The position numbers and the translations under genes were made by a program. The notes below the pieces were generated by a model. That model searched no databases and was not told where the DNA came from. It saw nothing but the letters and a program-made list of their open reading frames with translations. Positions 11,337 to 58,706 of a stretch of 64,000 bases of DNA are shown in pieces (positions within the stretch are counted from its first letter, which is position 1; every line of letters starts with the position of its first letter). This DNA is from a virus (taxonomy: Duplodnaviria > Caudoviricetes), in IMG/VR virus record IMGVR_UViG_3300027804_002460, positions 1,513 through 65,512 of that record; one strand, written 5' to 3'.

Positions 11337-12835
11337 TTACAATAGTTTATTCAACACATAAAGACGAAAACTATAATAACAAATTTAAACAACACTTATT
11401 ACAAACTGTTGGTTTAAAAGATGTTCAAATTTTAGAGTTTGTAAATCACAATCAATATTCTCTTTCACAAGTTTATAATAGTGGTATTACACAATCTATT
11501 TATAATATTGTGGTTTGTTGTCATAATGATATTAAATTAGAGAAAAATTGGGGTAAAAAATTGTTAGAAGATTTTTCAAATAATAATAGTTTTGGTATAA
11601 TTGGAAAAGCGGGATCATGTTATTTTCCTGAAACAGGAGTTTATTGGGATAGGATGCATTATACAATGGTTGGTCAAGTTTACCACCACCCTGAAGGGAA
11701 AAAAAAGTGGTTAAATAAATACTCAACAAAATTACCTTTTTTAATTCCTGTTGTAACAATTGATGGTTTATTTATTTCATTTGATAAAACAAAAATTAAA
11801 CACACATTTGATGAAACAATTGGTAAGTTTCACTTTTATGATCATTTGTTTTGTGTTCCAAATTATTTAGATGGGGTCAAAATAGGTGTAACCTCATCAT
11901 TCGAAATTATCCATGAATCTGTTGGTCAACCAAATAAAGAATTTTTTGATAGTAAAGAAAAATTTCTTGAGAAATGGGGAAGTAAATTACCGTTAGATTT
12001 AAAACCAACGGAAGTTTATGTTCCACAAATTAAAGTTAAACCAATAAAAAACGTTGGTAAAGTTGCAATCATCATCCCAACCAAAGGTAAAGTTGAGATG
12101 TTAAAGAAATGTGTTGATTCATTCCATGAACATTGTGATGAAAATTTATATGATATTTTTATTGCAGATACAGGATCCGCAGACGATGAAAAAAAATGGG
12201 TCAAAGAAAATATTAGTAATATAAATTTAATAGAATATGACTATTACAATTTTGCAAAAATAAATAATGACGTTGTTAAAAATCATATAACCGATAAGTA
12301 TGAGTTTTTATTATTTTGTAATAATGATATTCAAATATTGAATGATGTTATTTATGGGATGATGAAGACATTTAAAATGAAAAATAAAGTAGGTACAGTT
12401 GGGTGCAGGCTCCACTTTTCAAACAACACCATTCAACATGATGGGATTTCAATAGTGATGAAAGAAATATCCAAAACAATAGTCCTTGACCATTTAACAA
12501 GAGAAACATATTATAAATTTTTAACTGATACTCAAGATGTTGGTGGAAATACCGCAGCCTTGATGATGGTTAGAAAAAAAATGTTTGATTTTTTAGGTGG
12601 TTTTAATGAAAAATTTACTCATTGTCATGAAGACGCATATTTAGGTTTACAAATAATAAAAAATGGATATTTTAATTATTGTTGCGGTGAATGCGTGGCA
12701 TATCACCATGAATCAACAACAAGAAATATCAATGATAATCGAGAACAAATTAATAGAGAATTTGATGAAATCATGTCACCATACATAAGAGAAAATTTTG
12801 ATAAATTTAAAAAATATGCAATAGTAACAAATTAA
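11333..12835 (+). CDS. Two-domain glycosyltransferase (GT2-like + GT2)
   Basis: First domain CCHNDI...TIDGLF...FHFYD; second domain IIIPTK...IADTGS...FCNND...EDAYLGL. Confidence 0.85.
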   Translation: MITIVYSTHKDENYNNKFKQHLLQTVGLKDVQILEFVNHNQYSLSQVYNSGITQSIYNIVVCCHNDIKLEKNWGKKLLEDFSNNNSFGIIGKAGSCYFPETGVYWDRMHYTMVGQVYHHPEGKKKWLNKYSTKLPFLIPVVTIDGLFISFDKTKIKHTFDETIGKFHFYDHLFCVPNYLDGVKIGVTSSFEIIHESVGQPNKEFFDSKEKFLEKWGSKLPLDLKPTEVYVPQIKVKPIKNVGKVAIIIPTKGKVEMLKKCVDSFHEHCDENLYDIFIADTGSADDEKKWVKENISNINLIEYDYYNFAKINNDVVKNHITDKYEFLLFCNNDIQILNDVIYGMMKTFKMKNKVGTVGCRLHFSNNTIQHDGISIVMKEISKTIVLDHLTRETYYKFLTDTQDVGGNTAALMMVRKKMFDFLGGFNEKFTHCHEDAYLGLQIIKNGYFNYCCGECVAYHHESTTRNINDNREQINREFDEIMSPYIRENFDKFKKYAIVTN

Positions 12836-12836
12836 T

Positions 12837-13397
12837 ATGGAAGCACTTATAACGTTTATTATCCCATCATTAAATAGATTAACAATAATAAGATCTATTG
12901 ATTCTTTACTTAATCAAACTAACCCAAATTGGAGAGCTATTGTAATATACGACGGTGTTAAAGGTACCGAATTTAATGACGAGAGAATTAAAATTATTGA
13001 GCTACCTAAAACAGGTTTAGTCGGTCCACATAACGGTCAATCAGGTTTAGTTAGAAATGAAGGTATTAAAATTGTTGATACCGAATGGATAGGATTTTTA
13101 GATGATGACGACACAATCAATCCTGATTATGTTGATACTCTATTAAAAAAATATCAAGATAAAGACTTTGTAGTATGGAGAATGAAATATTCCAACGGAT
13201 TGGTTTTACCTCCATTAAACGAAAACAAATTAATATTTTCGAGAGTAGGGATATCTTTCTGCTATAAAAAGACTTTGGGTTATGTTTTGTTTGATTCAAA
13301 TAGAGATGGTGAAGATTTTGACCTTTTGATGAAATTAAAATCTTTGACAAGTAACTGGATAATAACACCAGAAGTATATTACAATGTAAGACATTAA
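12837..13397 (+). CDS. Glycosyltransferase family 2
   Basis: FIIPSL...IVIYDG...RNEGI...GFLDDDD. Confidence 0.85.
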   Translation: MEALITFIIPSLNRLTIIRSIDSLLNQTNPNWRAIVIYDGVKGTEFNDERIKIIELPKTGLVGPHNGQSGLVRNEGIKIVDTEWIGFLDDDDTINPDYVDTLLKKYQDKDFVVWRMKYSNGLVLPPLNENKLIFSRVGISFCYKKTLGYVLFDSNRDGEDFDLLMKLKSLTSNWIITPEVYYNVRH

Positions 13398-36536: not shown

Positions 36537-38483
36537 TTATCTCAATTCTCTCAAGTCGAATGTTCTAACTCCATCAACTGTGATACGTCCGTAGAAACGG
36601 TTGTTAACCATTTTCTTAGCGTAACGTGTCATAATACCTTTAATAGGTGTAAAGTTGAATGGGTTGTACATTGTAGGTGTCAATTGTAGAGGTACATACG
36701 GTGCGTAGATGTAACCTGTGTCTAACAATGATGTTCCTTTGTGACCGATTAACACTTGGTTAGGCGGGAAGTAAGGATCACGGTAAACTTGGTATCTACC
36801 AGATAATGTACCAACTCTCTCAATACCCATGTTGTACTGATCTTGCTCAGGAGCTGCGTTAGATACGTGGAAGTATTCTAAATCGTCAAAGATAGCAGAA
36901 ACCTCAGATGAAACAACGATCCAGTTAGCACCACCTCTTAAAGTAGATTTGTGGATTTGTGCTGACAATTGGTTGATTGCTGTAATCAAAGTTTGGTTCC
37001 AGTCTTTTTGAGTGTAAGATACTTGGTTGTTGATTCTTCTCCATCCGTTGTAATCCCAACGTAATTGCCATGCTGCACCTTTACGTAAGTCACGTAAGAT
37101 TTCACGGTCAATCTCAGCCGCTACTTGCTCAGATAACAATGCCGTTAACTCAGCTTCAGCGTCGATGTTATGGAATGCTGCAACGTCTTGAGCTAATTCA
37201 GGAGACCATTGTGCTCTTAGTTTTCTTTCTGTAACAGATACAGTTACTGACTCAAGGTCAAAAGAAACCTCACCAATTTGATCTTCGAACTCAAGGTTAG
37301 CATATCTTCTATACCATGCAGTAAATGAAGTAGCTGATCCACCTGATGCGATTGTAGTACCTGTGTAACCATCTAAAGATGTTGCGTCACAGTCAGCACA
37401 TACAGGACAAGAAAGGTCAACTTCTAACCAAATACATCCGTTAGCGTCACAAATGTCATTATAGTTACCACCGTTACCTGTTGGAGGTGTGTAATCTACA
37501 GTGTTGTTACCTGCATTTCTGAATGTAGTTCCTTGGTTTGTTCCGTATTTAACAATACCTTTACCATAGATTTGAGTTACAACTCTAAACAATAGAGGTG
37601 CGTATACTGTAGATCCGTTGTAAGTAGTTGTTGTTACACTACAAGGTGAAGTTGTGTTAGCAGAGAATCCGTTAGCCGCGTAAATTCTAAGGTCAGAAAG
37701 GAATGATTCTGTATCCATTTCGTTACCGTCAGGACCGATTAATTTACCTGCCCCTGCATTTGCAAATCCACAAAGTCTAACGATAACTTTTCTATAGTTA
37801 CCTGCTGGAATAATTTCTCCTGCCCCAATGTTAGCGTCAACCAATGCTGATCCAGCCCAAGCTTGGATAGCTGTAGTTGCAGTAACTGCAGTCCACTTAC
37901 CTTTAGAGTAGTCAAATAATCCTGGAGGATCTAAAGACGCTTCATTACCTTCATAGAATAAATCATAAAGATCTTTCTTGTAATAGTAATCATTGTCAGG
38001 GTATCCTTGATTAGGGTTATTTAATCCTGCGTTAACAGCTTCAGGAGATCCAATAGGTGCATAGTGGTCACCACCAGCATTAACGTTATTGTTAGGTGTA
38101 GAGTTAGGATATAAGTTAGCATACTCAGAAGATGCGTTTGCATATCCTTGGATTCTTGGTACAAAGTAGAACAATTTACCGATAGGTAAGTTCATAGCTT
38201 GTACTGATACGATATCGTTAGCTAACAATTTAGAGAAAACTCTTCTTACGATTGGGAAAACAACTGTTTCGAACGCTCCGTTTGATTGACCGTCAGAAGT
38301 TGCTTCGTTGATTAAGTAAGATGCTTGGTTTTCGTATAATTGTGCAACGTTTTCTTTTAAGTGACCTTTTAGACCATCCAAAAAGCCTAATTTGTCCCAC
38401 TTGTTAATTGTGTCTTCTTTGATAACTTTAAGGTGTTTCAACCCGATGTTACCTACAAGACCTGATTCTAATAATGCTCCCAT
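36537..38483 (-). CDS. Major capsid protein (T4 gp23-like)
   Basis: VFPIVRR...VSVQAMNLPIGKLFY; RKLRAQWSPELAQD...AEAELTALLSEQVAAEIDREI; YAPYVPLQLT...TRYA. Confidence 0.95.
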   Translation of the reverse strand: MGALLESGLVGNIGLKHLKVIKEDTINKWDKLGFLDGLKGHLKENVAQLYENQASYLINEATSDGQSNGAFETVVFPIVRRVFSKLLANDIVSVQAMNLPIGKLFYFVPRIQGYANASSEYANLYPNSTPNNNVNAGGDHYAPIGSPEAVNAGLNNPNQGYPDNDYYYKKDLYDLFYEGNEASLDPPGLFDYSKGKWTAVTATTAIQAWAGSALVDANIGAGEIIPAGNYRKVIVRLCGFANAGAGKLIGPDGNEMDTESFLSDLRIYAANGFSANTTSPCSVTTTTYNGSTVYAPLLFRVVTQIYGKGIVKYGTNQGTTFRNAGNNTVDYTPPTGNGGNYNDICDANGCIWLEVDLSCPVCADCDATSLDGYTGTTIASGGSATSFTAWYRRYANLEFEDQIGEVSFDLESVTVSVTERKLRAQWSPELAQDVAAFHNIDAEAELTALLSEQVAAEIDREILRDLRKGAAWQLRWDYNGWRRINNQVSYTQKDWNQTLITAINQLSAQIHKSTLRGGANWIVVSSEVSAIFDDLEYFHVSNAAPEQDQYNMGIERVGTLSGRYQVYRDPYFPPNQVLIGHKGTSLLDTGYIYAPYVPLQLTPTMYNPFNFTPIKGIMTRYAKKMVNNRFYGRITVDGVRTFDLRELR

Positions 38484-40437: not shown

Positions 40438-41166
40438 TTATTTATTCAAATAATCGGACAATCTATTCATTAAGTCAAGTGATTTTGATCCTGTTTCACC
40501 AATATGTCTTTCGGCTTGCATTTTTTTCTCCTCATCTAAATTCTCTTCGTAATTCATTCTTTCGTCTTTATCTCTGAAAAGATATGCTCCTGGCGTGGAT
40601 GGAGATGATACTAAGTCAAAACAAATTAATTCAAAATCATCCTGTACTTCGTTTTGTTCACCAACTTTTTTAAGAGACCCAACACCACGAGAAGATATAC
40701 CTAATGTTACACCTTGACGAAGATAGTTAGCTGCTAAATCCCCTTTTGTTGATACAATACCTCTTTCGTGAAAACCAGGACTTGTAAGTAATTTCAATTT
40801 ACCTAATAACACAGGACCTTCCCACCATATATCGGTAATGGCGTGGGATACTCGATCTAAATCTATTAGAGATGATTCAGGGTGATTTAACTCAGAAAGA
40901 GCGGTTCCTTTTTGAATCATCTTTTTATAATTGTCAGCTTCTCTTTTGAGAATCTTTTCAGGGTAAACTCTCCCGTTTCTATTTGGGGTATTGTATTTTT
41001 GTAATACCGCATAAAACTCAAATGGTTTTGAATGGTCTAACATATCTCTGTTCTCTCTAATCATAGATAAGTTTCTTCTTTCATTTGGGTCTATATATCC
41101 TGCGTCATACTCAACAAGAATTCCTTTTCCTGAATCTCTTGGTCCTAATATTTTTAAATCGCTCAT
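40438..41166 (-). CDS. Prohead maturation protease (T4 gp21-like)
   Basis: NRNGRVYP, ELNHP, GISSRGVGS, FDLVSSPS. Confidence 0.93.
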   Translation of the reverse strand: MSDLKILGPRDSGKGILVEYDAGYIDPNERRNLSMIRENRDMLDHSKPFEFYAVLQKYNTPNRNGRVYPEKILKREADNYKKMIQKGTALSELNHPESSLIDLDRVSHAITDIWWEGPVLLGKLKLLTSPGFHERGIVSTKGDLAANYLRQGVTLGISSRGVGSLKKVGEQNEVQDDFELICFDLVSSPSTPGAYLFRDKDERMNYEENLDEEKKMQAERHIGETGSKSLDLMNRLSDYLNK

Positions 41167-41735: not shown

Positions 41736-41921
41736 ATGTTATTAGTAGAAGTAAAAAAAGGAAACATTGAGAAGGCCCTAAAAGACCTGAAAGGAAAAGT
41801 TATTAGAACCAAACAAAACGCGGCTTTGTTTGAAAGAAAAGAGTTTGTAAAACCTTCAGTTAAGAAAAGAGCCCAAATCATTAAGGCTTCCTATATTCAA
41901 AAATTAAAGTCCCTCGTTTAG
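41736..41921 (+). CDS. rpsU: Ribosomal protein bS21
   Basis: MLLVEVKKGNIEKALKDLKGK...RKEFVKPSVKKRAQIIKASY matches bS21; sits opposite to the surrounding head genes. Confidence 0.9.
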   Translation: MLLVEVKKGNIEKALKDLKGKVIRTKQNAALFERKEFVKPSVKKRAQIIKASYIQKLKSLV

Positions 41922-43093: not shown

Positions 43094-44902
43094 TTAATCA
43101 CCAAGAAGTTTATTTAATTCATCTTCAATAAGACCTAAAGATCCGTTCATTTTTTTAAAATCTAAAAACTCATCTTCATCAAAATCATCATCTTTAGATT
43201 CTAATATTAGTTTATTTTTTTCTTTTCTAATACTTTCAGGAACTGTTGGTGCTGCTTCTGCAGGTGCTGCTTCTGCAGGTGCCGCTTCGGCTCCTGGTGC
43301 CGCCTCAACCCCTGGTGCTGCAGGTGCTGTAGGTGTCATTGTTCCACCTGTTACAGGTTTATAAAGTCTATCTACAGTATCAAAAATACCTGTTTTTGTA
43401 ATGATTGTTGCGGTATTATCAAGTTCAGTAGAAACCGCTCTCTCCATTCTAATTTGTTGTAACTCAAGTTTAATTTCTTCATCTGAGAAACCAAAGATAT
43501 GTTTCTTCGCCCAAGTAGCTGAAACAGGTTGGATTGATTTTGGAATTTCACTAACCATATCTTTGTATAGTGTTACTTTTTCTTTCCAAACATCAATCAT
43601 TAACAAGTCGGCTTGTTTCGATGGGTTTGTAAGTTGTAAAGTAAAATTTGACAACTCATCCTCAAATCCCATAAGGAATAAGTGGATGATTGCAATTTTG
43701 TTCATTTCTGCAATTGCAGATTTTTGAATTCTATTGATTGTTCTTGCAAAACGAATATCTAATAATGATAAGTTTTTACCATCACCTACAGGTTCCTCAA
43801 ATCCTAAATAAGCTTTAGGAATACGAAGTGCTGTAACTAATTTCTTTTGGATATATTCAATATCTGCAATTTCAGATAAGTTTTGTGCTCCCTGTAAAGT
43901 TTCAATCGGACTTTGTTGTGCCGGATCACGTACAGGAATAAAGTAATCTTGATCTACCGCCATTTGGTTAAATCGTAAATCCACATTTCCTGTTTTTCTA
44001 TCAACAACTTGATCTCTTTTAAATTTGTTTGCAACTCTTTGTACGTATGGTTCTACGTCTTTGTCATCCATGTTACCAACGTAAACTTTAAATACTCTTC
44101 TTTCAGGTGCTCTTGATGTTCTATAAATTAACATCGCATCTTCTGCCAATACTAACTGTTTCCAAATACGACGAGCTTTTTCTAACATCGATGTTCCATA
44201 AGGTAGTTTTCTATCATCACCCAATAATCTAAAGTGAGCGACCTCCCAAGTATTAAATTCTGTGTCTCTTGCTTTCCATGCGAACTTTAAAGCCTTTCTG
44301 TTTAAATTCATTGTAGCTTGGTATGTTCTTGAGTCAACACCTCTTTCTAATCTTTCAATTTCAATATTAGGTAGTTGTAAACATCCTGTAACTCCTTTTT
44401 CAGGGTCCAATTTTAAATAAACAAAATTATCACCATACTTACACATGTTTCTAATCCACATAGGTAAGTTGGTGTTTATATCTAAAGTATTGATGAATAA
44501 ATCAACTAATATACTTTTTATTCTTTTGGATTCTGAGTAAACCTGTAAAACATAACCGTTTTGATCAGGTGTTGTTGATTCCTCAGCATAGATATCTAAA
44601 GCAGTTGATATCTCAGGAGTATATTCCATCGATTCATAGTCATAGAATGCGGCTAATCTTGTTGGTTCGTAATATACGGCTTGAGTATATAAATTATTTT
44701 CTACTTTAGCCCAATTACCACTTAAATAAAGAGATTGCTGATTTTGAAGTTTTGCCTTTTCGTATTCAGCTTTATCTTGAGTTTTTAAAATTTCTTTTTT
44801 ATCTAACTTGTAATCAGGTTGACCTTGACCTAATGTAGAATCAGGTCCAAAAGTCGTAGCTAACCTTTGCCAAACCGTTAGATTTTTATTGTTATTTTCC
44901 AT
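43094..44902 (-). CDS. Portal protein (T4 gp20-like)
   Basis: YGTSMLEKARRIWKQL...EDAMLIYRTSRAPERRVFKVYVG...DYFIPVR...ALRIPK. Confidence 0.95.
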   Translation of the reverse strand: MENNNKNLTVWQRLATTFGPDSTLGQGQPDYKLDKKEILKTQDKAEYEKAKLQNQQSLYLSGNWAKVENNLYTQAVYYEPTRLAAFYDYESMEYTPEISTALDIYAEESTTPDQNGYVLQVYSESKRIKSILVDLFINTLDINTNLPMWIRNMCKYGDNFVYLKLDPEKGVTGCLQLPNIEIERLERGVDSRTYQATMNLNRKALKFAWKARDTEFNTWEVAHFRLLGDDRKLPYGTSMLEKARRIWKQLVLAEDAMLIYRTSRAPERRVFKVYVGNMDDKDVEPYVQRVANKFKRDQVVDRKTGNVDLRFNQMAVDQDYFIPVRDPAQQSPIETLQGAQNLSEIADIEYIQKKLVTALRIPKAYLGFEEPVGDGKNLSLLDIRFARTINRIQKSAIAEMNKIAIIHLFLMGFEDELSNFTLQLTNPSKQADLLMIDVWKEKVTLYKDMVSEIPKSIQPVSATWAKKHIFGFSDEEIKLELQQIRMERAVSTELDNTATIITKTGIFDTVDRLYKPVTGGTMTPTAPAAPGVEAAPGAEAAPAEAAPAEAAPTVPESIRKEKNKLILESKDDDFDEDEFLDFKKMNGSLGLIEDELNKLLGD

Positions 44903-45126: not shown

Positions 45127-46905
45127 TTATTTCATTAAACCACCAAATAACCAACCATATGTTTGATAGTCGTCTCTTGATGGACCATTATTATGTAATC
45201 CCATTCTATCTCTAAGTACATTCTGATTGGGTATTACAGGATCAAAATGTGCCTCTTTGGCAACCGCATCATTATTTACGACAGCCCAAGACTCAATCAT
45301 ATTTTTTGTGTGTTCAGTAGCTCTTTCTAATTTTGAAAATGAGGATTCTCCAACATATAACGCCATCGATATACCCATAATAAGGTCATCATGTTGTCCT
45401 TTTTGGTGATCAGGTCTACCGTTTATGTAGACAAATGTGTTCATCTCGTTATACAAACGAACACTTCTAATACCAAATTTATGTCTTACACTTTCCTCAA
45501 ATGCTGCAATAATCTGAACTCTTTTATTGTTAAAGTTAATACCTGGAATCTTATCAGCCGAAGTTTTATTTACCGCCCATATATTCATAGAATCAACTCC
45601 ATCAATATATAAACTTTTATAACCCAACTCTTGCATTTTTCTAACTGTCGTTATACCCATACCACCGGTGATATCGACAACAACAAAAGCATTATACATC
45701 ATACCCCACTTATATGCGACTTCTGCTAAAGTATCAGGTGGAATTTTTCCTACATACTCTAAGACTTGTTCTCTTTCGTCAAAATCAATTATTTGAATAG
45801 ATGAAAAGTCTTCACTATCACCTCGAGAAACATCAACACCCATAATGTACTTGTGACCTTCAATTGGTTCTTTCCAAATCCATAAGGAATTACCCATAAG
45901 TTTCGAAGGTGGTTCTTGTATTGTGTTTTCTTTAATAAACTCTAATTGTTTGTTATCAAATACGTTATCTCCTGAACCTAAAAATTCACAATTTAACTCT
46001 TGGTTAATTTTACGTTTATCGTATTTAAGTTTTTTAACCATTTTTTCATACCAAGAAGAACAAGGTTTGTATCCTTGACTAAAAAAATGTTTCATTTCAT
46101 CATAATCCCTATTAAATGGATCAGTATGAGCCCAAGAAATATTTTTTGATTCATCAAAATCTTCACGATTTAAAAGATAATGAACAATATCATCGGTTGG
46201 TACCAAATAAAGATCCTTGGTATATCTTGGATCTCTATACCAATACATCTCAGAAATTTTGAAGTTATTCATTCCTTTCAATGATTGGTCATATATTTCA
46301 TAATAAATTGGGTCATATCCGTTTGGTGTAGAAACCACAATTACCTTACCCCCTGTGGATAAGGATGCCATACAAGCCGCCCAGAAATCACTATCGGCTT
46401 CGATAAACGCCGCTTCATCAAATACAAGAATTGTTGGGGTAAATCCACGAAGGGCATCTTTTGATGTTGCCACCGCTTTAACCTCAGATCCGTTATTTAA
46501 TTTATAATGTCTTTGTGAATTTTTATCGTTTGAGAATCCAGCTCCCACCCAATTTGGCCATTGATCAACAAAGGCTCTAATCTTATTTGCCATTTCCATT
46601 GACGTATCAAGTTTGTTGGCAATAATTAGAATTTTTTCAGGTTGAGTTTTTTTAGCAAATACCAATCGTTTAGATATCCAAGCTGCGGTTACTGTTGATA
46701 CTCCGGCCTGACGATACTTTAACGCAATGTTTTCTTCAAATTTTTCGTAGTCATCTAACAATGATACTTGATCAGGAAATAGTTCCAAAGGAACGTATTT
46801 GGATACTGTGTTATCGTATGTTTGTAAATACGTTCTCAGAGCATATGGAGTATCACTCATACACCTAGCGTATTCAATTAAGACTTGTTCTTTAGTTAAT
46901 CCCAT
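45127..46905 (-). CDS. terL: Terminase large subunit
   Basis: LKYRQAGVST (Walker A variant), LVFDEAAF (Walker B), VSTPNG, MGVDVSRG...D, HDDLIM nuclease motifs. Confidence 0.95.
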   Translation of the reverse strand: MGLTKEQVLIEYARCMSDTPYALRTYLQTYDNTVSKYVPLELFPDQVSLLDDYEKFEENIALKYRQAGVSTVTAAWISKRLVFAKKTQPEKILIIANKLDTSMEMANKIRAFVDQWPNWVGAGFSNDKNSQRHYKLNNGSEVKAVATSKDALRGFTPTILVFDEAAFIEADSDFWAACMASLSTGGKVIVVSTPNGYDPIYYEIYDQSLKGMNNFKISEMYWYRDPRYTKDLYLVPTDDIVHYLLNREDFDESKNISWAHTDPFNRDYDEMKHFFSQGYKPCSSWYEKMVKKLKYDKRKINQELNCEFLGSGDNVFDNKQLEFIKENTIQEPPSKLMGNSLWIWKEPIEGHKYIMGVDVSRGDSEDFSSIQIIDFDEREQVLEYVGKIPPDTLAEVAYKWGMMYNAFVVVDITGGMGITTVRKMQELGYKSLYIDGVDSMNIWAVNKTSADKIPGINFNNKRVQIIAAFEESVRHKFGIRSVRLYNEMNTFVYINGRPDHQKGQHDDLIMGISMALYVGESSFSKLERATEHTKNMIESWAVVNNDAVAKEAHFDPVIPNQNVLRDRMGLHNNGPSRDDYQTYGWLFGGLMK

Positions 46906-49860: not shown

Positions 49861-50598
49861 TTATTGTTTCATCGACAATTTTTTGTCTATAAGATCTGTT
49901 GGTAATTCGTATAATTTCCCAATGTACCCATTTCTTCTCAGTAATTTGAATACTAAATTTTCTAAGGACATTTCTCCGTTTTTTTCAAGTCCGCAATTTC
50001 TGAATTTCTTTAATTTTTCTTTGTATTTTTTTACCAAACGTTTGATTTCATCGGGATCTTCATCACTGATATTATCAACAACACCATCAATAATTCTCAT
50101 CCACTGATTGGCCTTTTCCTTTAGAAGATCTATATCAATTTTTTTATCTTCAGATTTTTTTGGTTCATTAACCCACATATCATATAAAACAGAATATATT
50201 CCACTACTAAATGTTGTTTCACTTTCGCTTTGAACAAAACATTCAACGTCGTACCCAAATAATTTTATATTATGTCTATCGTTAAATATTATTTTTTTTA
50301 AATCAAAAAATTCAACATATAATTCTTGTGAGTTATTTGGGAATTGGTTGTAATTTACAACTATATGTAAATCTATATCCGAAAACTTAGACCAGTTATA
50401 ATTTACCAATGAACCAATCATTATTATATCAGTTACAATCACATCAACACCTAAAAAATCTATAAATACGTTTGCGGTTTCCAAAAGTTTTTCTCTTACT
50501 TCAGGTCTCATCATATATGACTTACCTTCCTTCTCCCAAATTTTAGGATTTAGATTTTCTTGGGATTCGAAACTTTTTATAATATCTGAAGTATTCAT
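49861..50598 (-). CDS. Pol-beta-superfamily nucleotidyltransferase
   Basis: IIMIGSLVNYNWSKFSDIDLH (GS-x8-DxD) plus a third acidic residue in YDVECF; likely start MNTSDII at 50598. Confidence 0.75.
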   Translation of the reverse strand: MNTSDIIKSFESQENLNPKIWEKEGKSYMMRPEVREKLLETANVFIDFLGVDVIVTDIIMIGSLVNYNWSKFSDIDLHIVVNYNQFPNNSQELYVEFFDLKKIIFNDRHNIKLFGYDVECFVQSESETTFSSGIYSVLYDMWVNEPKKSEDKKIDIDLLKEKANQWMRIIDGVVDNISDEDPDEIKRLVKKYKEKLKKFRNCGLEKNGEMSLENLVFKLLRRNGYIGKLYELPTDLIDKKLSMKQ

Positions 50599-50617
50599 AT
50601 AGATAAATACTTTATAA

Positions 50618-50860
50618 TTATAGTTTCTTATATGTGTGTGCTTTGGAAATGTTTTTGTTAAAGAAGTTTCCTTGAGATTCTGCCATTCTAAACTGAGTAT
50701 ATTTTTGATGTGGTACTTCACTATACTCATATCTCGCACCATTTTTAAACTCTGCAATCATTTTTTTAGTAAGGGTATCGTACTCAGTTCTTACAATATT
50801 TGATGATTCTATTTCATTCAAAATCGTTGTTCCACTAATTAATTCACTTGTTATTGCCAT
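50618..50860 (-). CDS. KTSC-domain protein
   Basis: SSNI...YD...EFKNGARYEYSEVP...AESQGNFFNKNI. Confidence 0.88.
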   Translation of the reverse strand: MAITSELISGTTILNEIESSNIVRTEYDTLTKKMIAEFKNGARYEYSEVPHQKYTQFRMAESQGNFFNKNISKAHTYKKL

Positions 50861-50939: not shown

Positions 50940-52796
50940 TTATTTAACTTCCTCGAACTCTACATTTGCAAAGTCTTCTTCTGTTGCTTCAGCGTTGTTT
51001 GTTTGTTCATACAACTTCTGACTTATGGTTTGGAATTTTTTATTAACCTCTTCCATTAAAATTTTTACTTCTGAAATGTCTTTCTTGTCGTAAGCCGATT
51101 TTAATTTATCGATTGATGAATTAATTTCAGTTTTTTCATCTTCAGTAATTTTACCTTCGAGATCTTCCATAGATTTACCGACTTGGAAAATTAATGAGTC
51201 AGCGGAGTTTAAAGTATCAACTTCCTCTTTTAATTTTTTATCAGCTTCCGCATTCATTTCAGCTTCTTGTTTCATTCTCTCAACTTCTTCTTTTGATAGA
51301 CCTGAAGATGACTCAATTCGGATTGATTGTTGTTTGTTAGTTGCTTTATCAACTGCAGATACATTTATAATACCATTTGCATCGATATCAAAGGTTACCT
51401 CGATTTGAGGAGTTCCTCTTCTTGCTGGTGGTAATCCATCAAGGTGGAATTTACCAATAGTTCTGTTATCTCTTGCCATTGCTCTTTCACCTTGTAAAAC
51501 ATGTATTTCTACTGTTGGTTGATTATCTGCAGCTGTTGAGAATGTTTCTGATTTTTTTGTTGGGATAGTTGTGTTTGCATCAATCAATTTTGTAAATACA
51601 CCTCCCATAGTTTCAATACCTAATGAAAGTGGAGTTACGTCTAACAACAATACGTCTGTCACATCACCAGCTAAAACACCTCCTTGAATCGCAGCTCCCA
51701 AAGCAACTACCTCATCAGGATTTACCCCTTTTGAAGGTTCTTTACCAAAGAATTTTTTAACTGCTTCTTGGATGGAAGGAATACGAGTAGATCCACCAAC
51801 TAAAATAATCTCATCAATATCAGATGGTTTTAGTTTGGCATTTTTCAAAGCGGATTCACAAGGTTTAATTGTTCTATCAACCAATGATTGTGTTAATTGA
51901 TCAAACTTAGATTTTGTGATAGTCATTACTAAGTGTTTTGGTCCTGTTGCATCTGCAGTTACATATGGTAAGTTAATTTCAGTTTGAGGTGAAGAAGATA
52001 ACTCAATTTTAGCCTTTTCAGCCGCCTCACGAAGTCTCTGAAGTGCCATAGGATCTTTTGAAATATCCATACCATTTTCTTTTTTGAATTCGGAAACTAA
52101 GTGGTCAATTAAAGCCTGATCAAAGTCATCCCCACCTAAGTGAGTGTCCCCGTCAGTTGCTAACACCTCAAATACACCGTCACCAAGTTCCAATACTGAT
52201 ACGTCATGTGTTCCACCACCACAGTCAAATACTACAATTTTCATGTCTTTTGACATTTTATCAAGACCATAAGCCAAAGCCGCGGCTGTTGGTTCATTGA
52301 TAATTCTTTTTACTGTAAGACCAGCAATTTCACCAGCTTCTTTAGTCGCTTGACGTTGAGCATCGTTAAAATAAGCAGGAACTGTGATTACGGCTTCAGT
52401 TACAGATTGACCTAAATAGTCTTCTGCCGTTTGTTTCATTTTTTGAAGGACGGCCGCTGAGATTTCTTGTGGTGAATAAGTTCTATCGTTAATTTGAACT
52501 TTTGGTGAGTTATTTTCTTTAATAACTTTGTAAGGGACCTTTGTTGTTTCATTTTTAACCTCATCAAAAGATGATCCCATAAATCTTTTAATTGAGTAAA
52601 TTGTTTTGTCAGGGTTTGTTACCGCTTGACGTTTTGCAGGATCTCCGATTTTTCTTTCACCGTCTTTAATAAACCCCACAATTGATGGTGTTGTTCTTTT
52701 TCCTTCACTGTTAGCAATAACCACAGGTTCCTTGCCTTCCATTACGGCAACACACGAGTTAGTTGTTCCCAAGTCAATTCCAATTATTTTTCCCAT
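50940..52796 (-). CDS. dnaK: Hsp70 chaperone DnaK
   Basis: [43 protein letters not shown]-terminal VEFEEVK. Confidence 0.98.
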
Positions 52797-52842
52797 TTTT
52801 TTATCATTTTATTTTTATGTTTATTTTTTCCACACTTTTTAC

Positions 52843-52873
52843 CAAATATATGCCATTCCATAAAACCTGTCAA
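52843..52873 (-). promoter_or_regulatory. Bacteroidota-type sigma70 promoter for dnaK
   Basis: TTG-N20-TATATTTG on the minus strand. Confidence 0.6.
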
Positions 52874-52966
52874 TATGTCAGTATATTTTTTTTTATACTG
52901 ACAAAATAACAATATTGGACTTTTCTAAATTTATTTATTAGTTTTTGAATGTAAAACAATAGAAGT

Positions 52967-55006
52967 ATGTTAGAATTTATGGATGAAGGAAATGATAAAG
53001 CGAAAAAAAAGTCTGATTCAGGAACACCTGTGTTAGATAATTTTAGCAAGGATTTAAACAAATTAGCTCAAGAAGGTAAATTAGATCCTGTAATTGGTAG
53101 AAAGAAGGAAATCTTAAGGATTGCTCAGATACTTTCTCGAAGAAAGAAAAATAACCCAATTATTATTGGTGAGCCAGGTGCAGGAAAAACTGCAATCGTT
53201 GAGGGTCTTGCCATGATGATTCATGATGGTGAGTGTCCTAAGAATTTAATGGATAAAAGAATTGTTTCTTTAGACATGAATTCTTTGGTTGCTGGAACAA
53301 AATACCGTGGTCAGTTTGAAGAAAGAATGAAGGTAATCATTGAAGAACTTCAATCATCCCCAAACATCATCTTGTTTATTGACGAGATTCATACAATAGT
53401 TGGTGCGGGAAATAGTTCAGGTTCATTAGATGCATCTAACATCTTCAAACCTGCACTTTCTCGAGGTGAAATTCAGTGTATTGGTGCAACTACTTTAGAT
53501 GAGTATAGAACTAACTTTGAAAAGGACGGAGCATTAGAAAGAAGATTCCAAAAGGTAGTTGTGGATCCTGCAACAAAAGATGAAACTTTTGAAATCCTTA
53601 AATTAAGTAAGGAAAAGTATGAAGATCACCATAAAGTGACTTATGATGATGAGACGTTATGGACATTTGTTGAGTTAGCGGACCGTTATATTACAGATCG
53701 TGAGTTTCCTGATAAGGCTTTTGATATCTTGGATGAGGTTGGTGCAAGAATGCAAATTGACATAAAACTTCCTGAAGTTATTGAGAACTTAAAAGATGAG
53801 GCTAACAAAATTAAACAAGAAAAAATAAACGTAATCAAAAGACAAGACTACGAACAAGCCGCAGAACTCCGTGATCGTGAAAGAGGTGTAATTGCAAAAC
53901 TTGAGGAAGAAAAGAAAAAATTTGAGGAACATTTGAGAAGTAGTAAAAGAACTATTCCTGAAGAATTAGTTTACGAGGTTGTTTCAAACATGACTAAAAT
54001 CCCAATTTCAAACATCAATCTTGATGAAAGGAATAATCTTATTAATTTGACTGATAATTTGAGTTCAAAAGTAATTGGTCAAGAAGAAGCGGTTTTAAAA
54101 ATTACAAAAGCAATCCGTAGAAATAGAATGGGTATTAAAGACCCAAATAAACCAATCGGTTCATTTATTTTCTTAGGATCTACAGGTGTTGGTAAAACAT
54201 ATTTGGCAAAACAATTGGCAAAAGAAATCTTTGGAAGTGAAGATAATATGATTCGTGTGGACATGAGTGAATACCAAGAAAAACATACTATTTCTCGTTT
54301 GATCGGATCACCTCCAGGATATGTTGGTCATGATGAAGGAGGTCAATTAACAGAACAAGTTAAAAACAAACCTTACTCTGTTGTATTATTTGATGAGATT
54401 GAAAAAGCTCACAAAGACATTTTCTCAACACTTCTTCAGTTGTTAGATGATGGTCACATTACGGATTCATTAGGTCGTAAGATCAACTTCAAAAATTGTT
54501 TGATCATTATGACTTCCAATATTGGTGTTAAAAGATTACAAGATTTTGGTGCTGGTGTTGGATTCAAAACAGGTAAAAGTGAGGCGGTTAGAGAAGAAGA
54601 GAAAAGAGAAATTCTTAAAAAAGAACTAAGTAAATTCTTCGCCCCTGAATTCTTAAATCGTATTGATGATGTAGTTATATTCAATTCACTTGAAAAGAAA
54701 CATATTGATGTAATTACAAAACTTGAGGTTGACAGACTACTAAAAAGAGTCTTAGAAAAGAAATATATTTTCACTTATGAACAAGATCTAATCGATTACA
54801 TTTCTAAAGTGGGATTTGATGAAACATTTGGAGCTCGACCAATCAAAAGAGCAATCCAAGATAAAATTGAGGATTTAATTTCTGAAAAAATCTTGATGAT
54901 GGAGATCGAAGAAAATAAAGACTATGTCTTGAAAGTTGAGAATGATGAGGTTGTTGTTTCTAATAAAGAAGAAAAAGTTAAAAAAACAAGAAAAAAGAAA
55001 GAATAA
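52967..55006 (+). CDS. clpC: ClpC-like Hsp100 AAA+ ATPase lacking the N-terminal domain
   Basis: Two NBDs (GEPGAGKT, GSTGVGKT), UVR-type M domain (DYEQAAELRD), GVGF ClpP-docking loop; sequence starts at TPVLDNFSKDL. Confidence 0.85.
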   Translation: MLEFMDEGNDKAKKKSDSGTPVLDNFSKDLNKLAQEGKLDPVIGRKKEILRIAQILSRRKKNNPIIIGEPGAGKTAIVEGLAMMIHDGECPKNLMDKRIVSLDMNSLVAGTKYRGQFEERMKVIIEELQSSPNIILFIDEIHTIVGAGNSSGSLDASNIFKPALSRGEIQCIGATTLDEYRTNFEKDGALERRFQKVVVDPATKDETFEILKLSKEKYEDHHKVTYDDETLWTFVELADRYITDREFPDKAFDILDEVGARMQIDIKLPEVIENLKDEANKIKQEKINVIKRQDYEQAAELRDRERGVIAKLEEEKKKFEEHLRSSKRTIPEELVYEVVSNMTKIPISNINLDERNNLINLTDNLSSKVIGQEEAVLKITKAIRRNRMGIKDPNKPIGSFIFLGSTGVGKTYLAKQLAKEIFGSEDNMIRVDMSEYQEKHTISRLIGSPPGYVGHDEGGQLTEQVKNKPYSVVLFDEIEKAHKDIFSTLLQLLDDGHITDSLGRKINFKNCLIIMTSNIGVKRLQDFGAGVGFKTGKSEAVREEEKREILKKELSKFFAPEFLNRIDDVVIFNSLEKKHIDVITKLEVDRLLKRVLEKKYIFTYEQDLIDYISKVGFDETFGARPIKRAIQDKIEDLISEKILMMEIEENKDYVLKVENDEVVVSNKEEKVKKTRKKKE

Positions 55007-55053
55007 TTTTTTTATTAACAATTATTCAACTATCTTTGTGGAAACAATTTGAA

Positions 55054-56079
55054 ATGGATCTAAATAAATTTAAAGAACTCCTATCTGTCCCTACCAAGAC
55101 CTATAAGGAAAGTAAAATGGTAGAGTATTTAATTTCTACCATTGGGGATATGGATGGAGTTACTCTTACTTGTGACGAACATAATAACATATATGCGGTT
55201 AAAGGAACATTGGGTGAAGGGGAATTTTACCCAATGTTCATTTCTCACACAGACACAGTTCACGAACTTGTTGACCTTATTGATGTAAAAGAAGAATACC
55301 TTCTCCGTCCATATACATTTGGAAAAGATTTTGGTCAAGAACAAGTATTGTGTTTAAAAGCCTACGACAAAGATGGGAGACCGACAGGTATTGGTGGTGA
55401 TGACAAATGTGGTATCTACATTTGTTTAGAATTACTCCGTCAGTTAGATAAAGTCAAAGTTGCATTTTTTGTATCAGAAGAAACAGGTTGTCATGGATCA
55501 AAATTGGTAAATAAAGAGTTTTTAAAAGATGTTGGTTATTGTACTCAATACGATGCACCTGGCGATCACTTAATTTCATACTCTTGTATGGGAACCGTAT
55601 TATTTGATAAAGATGGTGAGTTTTTCAATACAGCAATTCGATCAATCACAAAAGGATTTGGTAATGAAATGATGGTTCAGTCTCACCCATACACAGATAT
55701 CATGATGATTAAACAACTATCTGACCTATCTTGTATCAACATGTCTTGTGGTTATTATAACATGCACACAGCAAATGAATTCGTTTGTATTGATGATGTT
55801 GAGAGATCAATTCAGGCAGGTAAAAATATGGTTGAGGATCTTGGGTTAAAAAAATACGAATTCAAAACGGAACCAAAACCAACAACTACCACAACAACTT
55901 TGTTTGATGATGAAAGTCCATTCTACGATGATATTCACCAACTAACATCTATTGATGTGATTGAGGAAAAAGATGGGTTTATAATTGCAGATATCTATGA
56001 TGAAAATCAATTCTATATCGATGATGAGGATGGGTACAAGTTATACGAGATTCTAAAAGAGCGTTATCGTTTTAATTGA
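55054..56079 (+). CDS. M28/M20-family zinc peptidase
   Basis: SHTDTVH, GGDDKCG, SEETG, QYD, YYNMHT; TATCTTTG promoter element at 55031-55038. Confidence 0.75.
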   Translation: MDLNKFKELLSVPTKTYKESKMVEYLISTIGDMDGVTLTCDEHNNIYAVKGTLGEGEFYPMFISHTDTVHELVDLIDVKEEYLLRPYTFGKDFGQEQVLCLKAYDKDGRPTGIGGDDKCGIYICLELLRQLDKVKVAFFVSEETGCHGSKLVNKEFLKDVGYCTQYDAPGDHLISYSCMGTVLFDKDGEFFNTAIRSITKGFGNEMMVQSHPYTDIMMIKQLSDLSCINMSCGYYNMHTANEFVCIDDVERSIQAGKNMVEDLGLKKYEFKTEPKPTTTTTTLFDDESPFYDDIHQLTSIDVIEEKDGFIIADIYDENQFYIDDEDGYKLYEILKERYRFN

Positions 56080-57203
56080 CCCGGAGCGATTCTAAACTCA
56101 GTTGGTTTAAATAGACCTGGCTGAGTTGCCATTGTAATTACTTCATTAGGAGTTGATAAACCATACTGACGATCCCCAAAGTAAGAATTTCTACCTACTA
56201 TATATTTTACTTTTAAGGTTTCAGGATCAACTTCCTCAACTCTGATAAACATATTTGTTTGACCTGGTATTTTTACACCGCTATTTTGAAAAAGACCTAA
56301 TGCACTAAGTTTATCCATAGTTTTTGAGTATTCAGGAGAAAATTCTTCTTGAGCCCTTTCTATATACTCATCAATTAAATTTACCAATTTTTCACAGGAT
56401 TGAGATTCAAACATTTCATTATCCATTACATAATATTCCATCTCATAATGTTCAGGAAGAGAATGTCTAAATTTTTTTTCAATTTTTTGTATTAACAAAT
56501 CAAGGGCTTTTCCATCAAATTCACCATCCTCAACAAATAACTGAACTAGATTACCCCAACTTATAAAATATAATCCAAAACACCACTTACCCCATTTCTC
56601 AACTCCAAAGTCACTTAATGTATCACAATATACCTTTTGTATTTCTTGTTTAGCACCTTCTTCAGTTGCATTTGATTTAGCAGAACATATAATGTCATCC
56701 ATTTCATCTCCAATATTTTGAAAGTATTTGTCCAATACTGAAGTTATTTGACTTTCATCATCAATTCTACTACCGTCTTCTTTAATATTATCAACAAGGT
56801 TAGGTGCAATTATTTTAAGTAATTCTCTTAATCTGATTTTTGCTTCACCACAAAGATAACCTAAAGTATATCCTTCTTGCCAATCATCATATGCTCGTTC
56901 TTGGCACGAATCATAAAAATCGTAAGAACCATAATACATACGATCATAGTTAATAGCATCCCACTCACCGTCAGATCCTTCTTCAAACGCAGGGTAATGA
57001 AAAAATTTCAAAAACTGTTCTAAATCTTCAAAATCAAATAATAAACCATCAGGTTTAATTTGAACCTTATTTAAATCAATGTCATAATCCTTAGTTATGA
57101 ATTCGACATCATCAGGAGACAACTTTCTTTTGTTTAAAAGAAGGATTTTTTGAAAGTCCGTCATTTCAGGAACATCATTTTCAATAAGAAGTCTTTTTTT
57201 CAT
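56064..57203 (-). CDS. Hypothetical protein
   Basis: 379 aa; TATTTATA 13 nt upstream. Confidence 0.75.
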   Translation of the reverse strand: MKKRLLIENDVPEMTDFQKILLLNKRKLSPDDVEFITKDYDIDLNKVQIKPDGLLFDFEDLEQFLKFFHYPAFEEGSDGEWDAINYDRMYYGSYDFYDSCQERAYDDWQEGYTLGYLCGEAKIRLRELLKIIAPNLVDNIKEDGSRIDDESQITSVLDKYFQNIGDEMDDIICSAKSNATEEGAKQEIQKVYCDTLSDFGVEKWGKWCFGLYFISWGNLVQLFVEDGEFDGKALDLLIQKIEKKFRHSLPEHYEMEYYVMDNEMFESQSCEKLVNLIDEYIERAQEEFSPEYSKTMDKLSALGLFQNSGVKIPGQTNMFIRVEEVDPETLKVKYIVGRNSYFGDRQYGLSTPNEVITMATQPGLFKPTEFRIAPGQLKR

Positions 57204-57218
57204 ATATTTATAAATATA

Positions 57219-57249
57219 TTGGATAATACAAATCTTTGTATTATATTTG
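57219..57249 (+). promoter_or_regulatory. Bacteroidota-type promoter for tmRNA
   Basis: TTG-N20-TATATTTG, 21 nt upstream of the mature 5' end. Confidence 0.65.
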
Positions 57250-57270
57250 TATAGAAGTTATTTGACATAT

Positions 57271-57657
57271 GGGGGCGTTTTTGGATTTGACAGGTATTGG
57301 CTGAGGAATAAGGGCATGTAGGGACTGAGTTAATCTCTTTAAAAACTGACTTAGAAAACAACTGGCAATGTGCTAAACAAAATGGAAACTCTTGGATTAG
57401 TAAGAGGTTCTGAAGTTACTGTAGCTTAAGATAAGTTCGGAAACGGGGGGTCGGCAGACATATAACCTAGCAACAGAAGTCGTAGTTGTGGTGGATTACT
57501 ATTGAACCCTAAATCGAATGGTAACCATTGGTTGTTGATTTACGATGGTGAAGAACAAATCAACTATTTTGGGGTATTAGAAAATACCAACCTAAACATG
57601 TAGTCCTTATCTGACAGGATAAGCTGGACGAGGGTTCGAGTCCCTCCGCCTCCACCA
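57271..57657 (+). ncRNA. ssrA: Transfer-messenger RNA (tmRNA), 387 nt, predicted tag (A)GNVLNKMETLGLVRGSEVTVA*
   Basis: 5' GGGGGCG..GGATTTGAC; 3' T-arm GAGGGTTCGAGTCCCTC followed by CGCCTCCACCA; G3:U70 wobble; AACT|GGC resume context at 57364, stop at 57427-57429. Confidence 0.92.
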
Positions 57658-57660
57658 ACT

Positions 57661-57688
57661 AAACCTCATCTTCGGATGGGGTTTTTTT
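57661..57688 (+). terminator. tmRNA terminator
   Basis: AAACCTCATC-TTCG-GATGGGGTTT followed by a T run. Confidence 0.85.
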
Positions 57689-57738: not shown

Positions 57739-57780
57739 AAATTTTTTACCGGTTAGCTCCATTCTATAAAAGAAATAAAA

Positions 57781-58620
57781 CGCTGAGATTACACGTTTGA
57801 TTGAGAACCTTTAGAGTCATTATTGTTTCTACTCCTATCCACTTCCTTTTGAGAAGTATTTCTCAGTGACGGTCTTTTAGGTGTACCACTCCTTGAGATA
57901 ACAGTTACTCTCTTATTACTCGACTCTCTTCGAGGATGCCTCCCCAACTCATCCTTGCGGGACTAGAGGTGTTTGGTAAGAATACGATCAGACTTGCGAT
58001 CCTTTCGTGCAATGAACGGCTCATTACTATGTAGTCACCTTTCACTGTTACCTGACGGACACTTTTGCTTACTGTAGTTTCATATTGGAAAATATCAACT
58101 TCCATAAGTTTTTGTGTCGTGGATTGTAGAAGTAGTGGTCCGTCACGGGCTTCGCTATCTTTTGAACAACGAAATACTCAACTACTCCTTGAAATGTCCC
58201 CATCTCCATACTTTAAGATTACTTCGAGATCAACCCCTTGGTAGAGGTTTATCAAGGTTAATAACAGCACCACCTGTACACTAACATACCTTTCGGTTTT
58301 AAGTACCCTTTTGTATTGGAACACGCAATAATGAAATCGGATAACTTCATGTTTTGCAATATCCCTACGGGTTATTCCTATTGGTGTTCCCACCTCAATC
58401 AGACGACCCACATCGCCAAATCACTTAACCAGTTTCCCTACAGCGTTGCCCTCGGTACTCAAGCTTAAGCGGTATCCCGCTTGTGTACTCGACCTCGATT
58501 ACTCAAGGCGCAAATCGGTTACACTTCCGACTCACTTTATCCTACTTTCGTAGTTTATTTTATGGACTATACACGGCCCAATATCTTTATCATTCCAAGA
58601 AGAGACTTACATCTCAATCA
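57781..58620 (-). ncRNA. Large structured ncRNA candidate (~840 nt core; GOLLD-like by size and context)
   Basis: Visibly GC-richer than the flanks, no credible ORF, many GNRA-capped hairpins on the minus strand, 5' TGATTGAGA complementary to 3' TCTCAATCA, own promoter and terminator. Confidence 0.65.
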
Positions 58621-58706
58621 CTTGTCAAAGAATCTGACAAAACTTTTCCTGAACGGATAATCTATTTTTTCAAAGAACGTTTCAGGACTTTTCCTGATTT
58701 GTTTTA

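Follow-up and report, generated by a model that had tools for sequence, protein, structure and literature searches.

The 64,000-nucleotide stretch of phage DNA considered here (positions 1,513 to 65,512 of the IMG/VR virus record IMGVR_UViG_3300027804_002460, Caudoviricetes; hereafter the window, to which coordinates refer) carries genes for a ClpC-type ATPase that lacks the N-domain, a putative zinc exopeptidase, and a transfer-messenger RNA (tmRNA, ssrA) with a long tag of its own. In bS21-type jumbo phages of freshwater Bacteroidota this region constitutes a conserved accessory block beside the packaging genes, and the clustering of the Clp, peptidase and tmRNA genes is not a matter of chance, a statement from which the adjacent DnaK gene is excluded. 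This association suggests a coupled pathway of ribosome rescue, tagging, ClpP-dependent unfolding and degradation, and peptide trimming, a reading to which we assign a probability of roughly 40%. An earlier interpretation made from the letters of the window (the sequence-only reading) had described four quality-control components within 7 kb, and all four are present, as listed here with the tag frame and terminator-like hairpin of the tmRNA:

50940-52796, minus strand: DnaK (Hsp70), 618 aa, between the nucleotidyltransferase and Clp genes
52967-55006, plus strand: ClpC-type class-I Hsp100 ATPase, N-domain-less, 679 aa, two rings
55036-56079, plus strand: putative di-zinc exopeptidase of clan MH (M20/M42-like), listed with 347 aa
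57271-57657, plus strand: tmRNA (ssrA), one-piece, with encoded CCA
57364-57429, plus strand: tag reading frame in the tmRNA, with resume codon GGC, 21 codons and stop TAA (57427-57429)
57661-57684, plus strand: intrinsic-terminator-like hairpin directly 3' of the tmRNA, a 10-bp stem followed by a T run

The tmRNA gene scores 114.5 bits with the Rfam model RF00023 (gathering score 47), covering model positions 1-374 of 374. The acceptor stem is formed by 5' GGGGGCG and 3' CGCCUCC, the latter followed by ACCA, which gives a G3-U pair and a 3' CCA. A homologous tmRNA gene was recovered from six of six distant relatives (51-130 bits with the Rfam model). ARAGORN, applied to the window and to a 700-nt excerpt, called no tmRNA, a negative result that was set aside because the Rfam and comparative data are clear. 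The possibility that the sequence is an attP-type fragment of a host ssrA gene was ruled out, as the gene is full length and has its own tag. The hairpin that follows the tmRNA suggests that it forms its own transcription unit. About 8 nt 5' of the tmRNA start (window 57255-57270) there is a TTTG, conserved in many relatives, which we take to resemble the -7 element of Bacteroidota promoters, and the 5' end of the tmRNA may lie near the transcription start.

The tag peptide encoded by this tmRNA is GNVLNKMETLGLVRGSEVTVA, with the resume codon GGC at 57364 fixed by the Rfam alignment and by comparison with relatives. Among 124 homologous tmRNAs gathered from related viral contigs, the tag register is open over 21-22 codons in 120, which together specify 63 distinct peptides. 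Residues G11-L12 are invariant in these 120 phage tmRNAs, and G1, K6, V18 and the final alanine, A21, are nearly so. Entropy at codon positions 1, 2 and 3 of the tag is 0.92, 0.58 and 1.29, and this pattern, with the third position the most and the second the least variable, indicates that the tag is under selection as a peptide. An alternative short tag frame of three codons, starting from GCA, was rejected, as it is not conserved among relatives. For comparison, tmRNAs were taken from five genomes of Flavobacteriales and other Bacteroidota kin as candidate hosts, and ARAGORN read a tag in four of them; these tags are 9-10 residues long with ALAA at the end, as in GENNYALAA. The phage tag is more than twice as long and has no ALAA/YALAA end; phage tags end instead in small non-polar residues, mostly TVA, AVA or VVA, and their N-terminal half is amphipathic, with the invariant Gly-Leu. 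The GGC (Gly) resume context is common to the phage tmRNA and three of the four candidate-host tmRNAs. That the phage supplies its own tag, as had been proposed, is thus borne out by a peptide that is conserved in the phages and unlike the tags of candidate hosts. As a separate observation, the resume context ...ACT|GGC recurs in the tmRNA of the huge phage LR756508 (record 92434-92880; 72 bits), whose open frame runs for 36 codons and ends in small non-polar residues; there ARAGORN calls another, short tag. Large Bacteroidota phages may in general have long tags.

The ATPase encoded upstream of the tmRNA has Pfam matches to AAA, AAA_lid_9, AAA_2 and ClpB_D2-small, a weak match to UVR, and a PHROG assignment (4871, 'ATP-dependent protease'). 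Its best solved relative is ClpC: it is collinear in one stretch with residues ~146-805 of the Staphylococcus aureus and Bacillus subtilis proteins (714 bits for S. aureus ClpC, over ClpC residues 149-791), and this alignment includes the Walker A and B motifs of the two rings as well as both pore loops. ClpB structures align in two pieces only, ClpA and ClpE score lower than ClpC, and the NCBIfam ClpB model TIGR03346 reaches 806 bits, below its cut-off of 1232. The loop G-V-G-F in the second ring aligns with the A-G-F ClpP loop of S. aureus ClpC, and all 84 homologues examined (631-741 aa), those of three huge phages included, keep this docking loop in the form G-(V/I/M)-G-F without exception; the ClpB family is not known to have a ClpP loop. 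No match to the Clp_N domain was obtained in the ATPase, in the whole record or in two complete relatives, and the N-domain is absent from all 84 homologues examined. Judged by these sequence features, the protein is a ClpC-type, N-domain-less and predicted ClpP-dependent unfoldase, neither ClpB nor, as the N-domain is missing, ClpC proper. In ClpC, MecA/McsB-type adaptors and phospho-arginine dock on the N-domain. Mycobacterial ClpC1 without its N-domain still unfolds ssrA-tagged protein (PMC6274998), and the missing domain is therefore no argument against tag recognition. A role for the ATPase in head maturation was considered unnecessary, since an S77 prohead protease is encoded by the phage itself. 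A TATTTAT-type motif is located at window 52925-52940, ~28 nt 5' of the Clp start.

More than 590 IMG/VR stretches encode a relative of this ATPase, and the best 80 (66-100% identical) were used as Clp-seeded loci. The gene order that emerges is portal, terminase, three genes of unknown function, nucleotidyltransferase, DnaK (in some), Clp, peptidase, a variable gene (in some), tmRNA and GOLLD RNA (in some). All 43 loci with at least 7.5 kb of sequence past the Clp stop carry a tmRNA on the same strand, 1.9-5.1 kb downstream. The converse comparison started from the tmRNA: 80 loci were fetched with a 15-nt tmRNA pattern, of which 70 fit the profile of this tmRNA family, the other ten being chance matches and not tmRNAs by Rfam. 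In this set the Clp and peptidase genes are found in each of the 33 loci with at least 5.5 kb upstream, down to ~60% Clp identity. The peptidase gene adjoins Clp in 78 of 80 loci and is inverted relative to it in 60 of those 78, and insertions between the genes of the trio occur, so that the trio is linked but does not form an operon; the linkage outlasts both the insertions and the inversion. The sequence-only reading had named co-occurrence and synteny across related phages as a check, and a lack of linkage in relatives among the grounds for giving up its circuit. For the Clp, peptidase and tmRNA genes linkage was found in every locus tested (43/43 and 33/33), but DnaK was found in only ~6 of ~115 loci and falls away as a conserved member.

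With respect to the partners that such a system would need, SmpB, ClpP, DnaJ and GrpE had been noted as missing from the window, and six-frame Pfam searches of the whole 65.5-kb record likewise found no SmpB, CLP_protease, DnaJ or GrpE. The window is nearly all of this linear record, whose CheckV completeness is 22%, so that a gene's absence from the window alone carries little weight. No SmpB, ClpP or Hsp70 is encoded by the nearest of the near-complete relatives (291 kb, 99%; Clp 81% identical). SmpB (161 bits) and a ClpP with an intact Ser-His-Asp triad are encoded by a complete genome at greater distance (309 kb; Clp 67% identical). ClpX was found in none of five genomes tested, and a phage ClpP thus has no other candidate partner of phage origin than the N-domain-less ATPase.

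A survey of 32 contigs compared the docking loop with the presence of phage ClpP. Each of the 14 contigs with a phage ClpP carries the IGF/short-loop variant of the ATPase. The V/MGF/long-loop variant, which is the type found in the window, occurs in 13 contigs, among them the complete 291-kb genome and fragments of 99-149 kb, and no phage ClpP is present in any of these; the five IGF contigs without ClpP are fragments of 48-67 kb. This is the pattern expected if the loop were matched to its ClpP partner. The suggestion that the phage borrows the catalytic cores of its host fits the closest complete relative, which has neither ClpP nor SmpB, but is not a general rule, as some relatives encode ClpP and one of them SmpB as well.

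The peptidase probably starts at the ATG at 55054, because its relatives begin at the residue encoded there. Its Pfam matches are weak but above threshold for both M20 (31.3 bits, cut-off 24.6) and M42 (23.9 bits), and it matches PHROG 4191 ('peptidase', E 3.5e-39). An AlphaFold model (pLDDT 89.5) has PepT (3gb0) as its top Foldseek match (E 3.9e-14), and M42 TET aminopeptidases follow with E ~1e-12 to 1e-10 and probability 1.00, with 12-19% identity to the top structural matches. Ten residues are invariant in 43 homologues (H71, D73, D122, D123, E148, E149, D173, H217, D221 and H244), and their pattern appears compatible with the five metal ligands and the general-base glutamate of clan MH. 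Most relatives consist of a core of ~260-280 residues, to which the form in the window adds a C-terminal domain of ~50 residues. The PepT and TET/M42 families trim short peptides released by ATP-dependent proteases.

DnaK is securely identified (Pfam HSP70, 870 bits; NCBIfam NF001413, 1006.5 versus a cut-off of 648; TIGR02350, 973 versus 822.6), and it is a variable accessory insert, not a core member. It occupies this site in 5 of the 80 Clp-seeded loci and in one tmRNA-seeded locus, is patchy even among close relatives, and is absent from the two complete relatives. Its best bacterial relatives, 68-77% identical, are nearly all from Bacteroidota, mainly Flavobacteriales and Parapedobacter. 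The gene is a recent addition whose nearest resemblance is to Flavobacteriales DnaK, and it was probably derived from a host.

If these parts act together, the most likely sequence of events is the following. The phage tmRNA would rescue stalled ribosomes, in this lineage with the SmpB of the host, and would append an alanine and the phage-specific 21-residue tag to the truncated chain. The N-domain-less unfoldase would dock on ClpP, provided by the host in this lineage and by the phage itself in the sister lineage, and the tagged chain would be unfolded and degraded by the ATPase and ClpP together. The small putative di-zinc exopeptidase would then trim the released peptides to amino acids. 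Such a route would be under phage control during infection and would bypass the ALAA/ClpX pathway of the host. Three of its links are inferred: the unfoldase as reader of the tag, the compatibility of host SmpB and ClpP with the phage parts, and a downstream role for the peptidase. A narrower proposition, which we offer tentatively and rather doubt as it stands, is that the 21-22 residue tag is a private degron that evolved away from the ALAA of the host and is read by a phage unfoldase able to plug into any available ClpP (that of the host, or that of the phage where the loop is IGF). The claim that the phage supplies its own unfoldase agrees with the invariant docking loop of that protein, and its reading of the tag would be the conjectural half. 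The private tag-and-degrade circuit of the sequence-only reading likewise draws support from the phage's own tag, the docking loop and the linkage, set against an evidence base of association, a collinear block and the lack of an operon.

A number of observations weigh against the coupled pathway. The genes lie on different strands, with the peptidase inverted in most relatives and no operon. The portal, the terminase and four other genes in the same block are about equally conserved in position, so that the linkage may reflect collinearity and by itself is no proof of joint function. Three huge phages (484-642 kb) encode a Clp that is 48-59% identical; two of them have no convincing tmRNA, in the third the tmRNA is ~360 kb away, and in all three DnaK lies 30-50 kb from Clp. 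Binding of the tag by the ATPase is proposed from association, and the role of the peptidase from its family. The co-variation of loop and ClpP follows the clade split, is confounded with phylogeny and may represent a single event. Host ClpXP might also accept the small non-polar end of the tag, given what is known of ClpX degrons.

Several of these points are what one would expect if the parts were independent, an explanation that we regard as a serious possibility, if short of an even chance. The tmRNA would then mainly free ribosomes, which would keep up translation capacity when phage or host nucleases cut mRNAs or would blunt RNA-cleaving defences; host proteases would take care of the tagged products, if these were processed at all, the ATPase and ClpP would work on other substrates such as host or misassembled virion proteins, and the adjacency would be an inherited gene order next to the structural module. 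In addition to the equally strict synteny of portal, terminase and unknown genes, the differing strands, the peptidase inversions and the huge phages with homologous Clp and no linked tmRNA, this explanation can appeal to the tRNAs and GOLLD that cluster on the tmRNA's side, which suggest that the tmRNA may belong to an RNA island and not to Clp, and to the fact that Clp and chaperones have been counted as general proteostasis genes of the bS21 clade (Chen et al. 2022, PMC9723584). It is less easily reconciled with the tag itself, since a tag that serves rescue only, or that is left to host proteases only, needs no conserved non-host sequence of 21 residues with invariant internal positions, or with a linkage that persists through local rearrangements down to ~60% Clp identity.

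The tag could also be something other than a degron: it might shield chains from host ClpXP, sequester them, target them to a phage structure, or be part of a sensor or decoy that titrates host SmpB, with Clp unrelated. We consider this improbable. The small non-polar ending is like that of known degrons, and a decoy has no need of the full tmRNA architecture and open tag frame that have been kept, even though the lack of a host-type YALAA end, the amphipathic N-terminal half with its invariant Gly-Leu and the absence of a phage SmpB from the closest complete genome are in line with such a role. One huge phage has a mini tmRNA-like gene consisting of a tRNA-like domain (TLD) only, and TLD-only molecules have been discussed as SmpB titrators (PMC4131195). 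As for a 'tag-and-rescue' scheme centred on DnaK, in which DnaK and the ATPase would form a ClpB-style disaggregase pair that refolds proteins, the two genes are divergently adjacent in the window and the ClpB model does give its 806 bits, under the cut-off; however, DnaK is missing from most relatives and both complete genomes, the ATPase gives a single unbroken alignment with ClpC, whose M-domain is short, and a two-piece one with ClpB, it has the ClpP loop, and the record has no DnaJ or GrpE. This scheme was already disfavoured and is very unlikely.

The neighbouring features that place the phage, and those that flank the cluster, are the following:

36537-38483, minus strand: gp23-like major capsid protein
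40438-41166, minus strand: S77 prohead protease
41736-41921, plus strand, opposite: ribosomal protein bS21 (Pfam, 38 bits)
43094-44902: portal protein
45127-46905: large terminase
49861-50757, minus strand: nucleotidyltransferase-like gene (PHROG 36119; weak NTP_transf_2)
50618-50860, minus strand: KTSC-domain protein (59 bits)
56064-57203, minus strand: fast-evolving gene without assigned family, 379 aa, between the peptidase and tmRNA genes
57780-58650, minus strand: GOLLD RNA, convergent with the tmRNA (Rfam RF02032 on 57780-58189)

The combination of bS21, the S77 prohead protease and the gp23-like capsid protein places the phage in the bS21 clade (Chen et al. 2022), and from the CheckV completeness its full genome is estimated at ~300 kb, that of a jumbo phage of this bS21/Bacteroidota clade. 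The bS21-encoding myophages of 293-331 kb, whose predicted hosts are freshwater Bacteroidetes, have the same gene layout (PMC9723584); in that paper tRNAscan-SE was the sole tRNA tool and no tmRNA is mentioned. A megablast search with a 10-kb query against GenBank phages returned no match. The nucleotidyltransferase-like gene is syntenic with Clp in 76 of 80 relatives.

The gene between the peptidase and the tmRNA has homologues of 17-77% identity at the same position in 26 loci. No match was found for its product in Pfam, NCBIfam or PHROG, and the ESM Atlas gave no lead; its model, though confident (pLDDT 85.8), has no Foldseek match at E <= 0.001 in the PDB or BFVD, and the best VIA-align Z score is 5.4, with helical bundles only. 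Homologues of 605-620 aa in relatives are extended at the N-terminus by a region that carries a conserved Cys/Tyr/Trp-rich motif. A stretch within this gene that resembles the core of the tag was dismissed as coincidence, as it is not conserved in the gene's own family.

The GOLLD RNA scores 336 bits against a gathering threshold of 150 over the full RF02032 model, and in 18 close relatives nhmmer shows conservation over ~870 nt, to ~58650; the small open reading frames that fall within it are spurious. GOLLD was looked for in the loci of six more distant relatives and not found, and is thus no constant member of the block. In two phages of ~640 kb without a convincing tmRNA, GOLLD and tRNAs occur 2-6 kb upstream of the homologous Clp, the GOLLD positions being:

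LR745206, locus excerpt 12535-12940
LR756502, locus excerpt 9031-9437

The GOLLD-Clp neighbourhood may therefore recur outside the bS21 clade, on the basis of these two related genomes.

Phage tmRNAs have often been listed, and their purpose is still a question. In the present family the tag is conserved and unlike that of hosts, the strictly linked unfoldase keeps its ClpP loop intact, and the phages divide naturally into those with and those without ClpP; the set of 120 tmRNAs and more than 590 Clp-bearing viral stretches makes the question of what a phage tmRNA does directly testable by biochemistry. If the unfoldase were to read the tag, this would be a natural orthogonal degron/unfoldase pair and the first viral tag/unfoldase pair; the virus would have an orthogonal, self-specified degradation channel within its host and would re-route host protein quality control, not just boost it. 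Moreover, ARAGORN misses the whole long-tag tmRNA family, and surveys that rely on it will under-count phage tmRNAs.

Phage tmRNAs, phage Clp genes and the position of GOLLD beside tRNAs are all already known. Large phages with ssrA, sometimes with SmpB or ClpXP encoded elsewhere, have been described (PMC4131195; Bacillus phage G, PMC12484599; Al-Shayeb et al. 2020, PMC7162821, which includes huge phages with both tmRNA and SmpB). The phages with known tmRNAs (the mycobacteriophage Bxz1 group, Bacillus phage G and huge phages) resemble the present lineage in that ssrA is carried by a large phage, and the available portions of those papers do not report a conserved tag family, a strict linkage with an unfoldase and a peptidase, or co-variation of loop and ClpP. 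Targeted full-text literature searches likewise found no report of this tmRNA family, its long conserved tag, its strict Clp/peptidase linkage or the loop/ClpP co-variation.

Among cellular systems, bacterial trans-translation shares with the phage version a one-piece tmRNA with tRNA-like domain, G3-U pair, CCA, pseudoknots and an internal tag frame with a small non-polar end. The phage version differs from trans-translation coupled to ClpXP/ClpAP in that its tag has 21-22 residues versus 9-10 and no YALAA, in that this phage lineage has no SmpB, ClpX or ClpP, and in that it is virus-encoded and lies beside a ClpC-type and not a ClpX ATPase. The ATPase resembles the ClpC of the ClpC-MecA-ClpP system of Firmicutes and the ClpC1 of mycobacteria in its two AAA+ rings, short coiled-coil M-domain and ClpP loop, and differs from both in lacking the N-domain in all 84 phage homologues. 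The peptidase shares the clan-MH fold, and apparently the conserved His/Asp/Glu-Glu/Asp/His positions, with PepT (M20B) and TET/M42, from which it differs in its low identity (12-19%), its small core and, in the window form, the extra C-terminal domain. The unusually long tag finds its closest precedent, in the sense that a long tag goes with a different reader, in Mycoplasma. Gur and Sauer are said to have found in 2008 that the extended ssrA tag of Mycoplasma is read by Lon. The Mycoplasma tag has 27 residues and evolved along with a switch of the reading protease to Lon, as was shown experimentally (Burgos et al. 2021, PMC8403727). In that case the cell reads the tag with a Lon of its own, as experiments established, whereas the reader proposed for the phage tag is, by association, the phage's own Clp ATPase.

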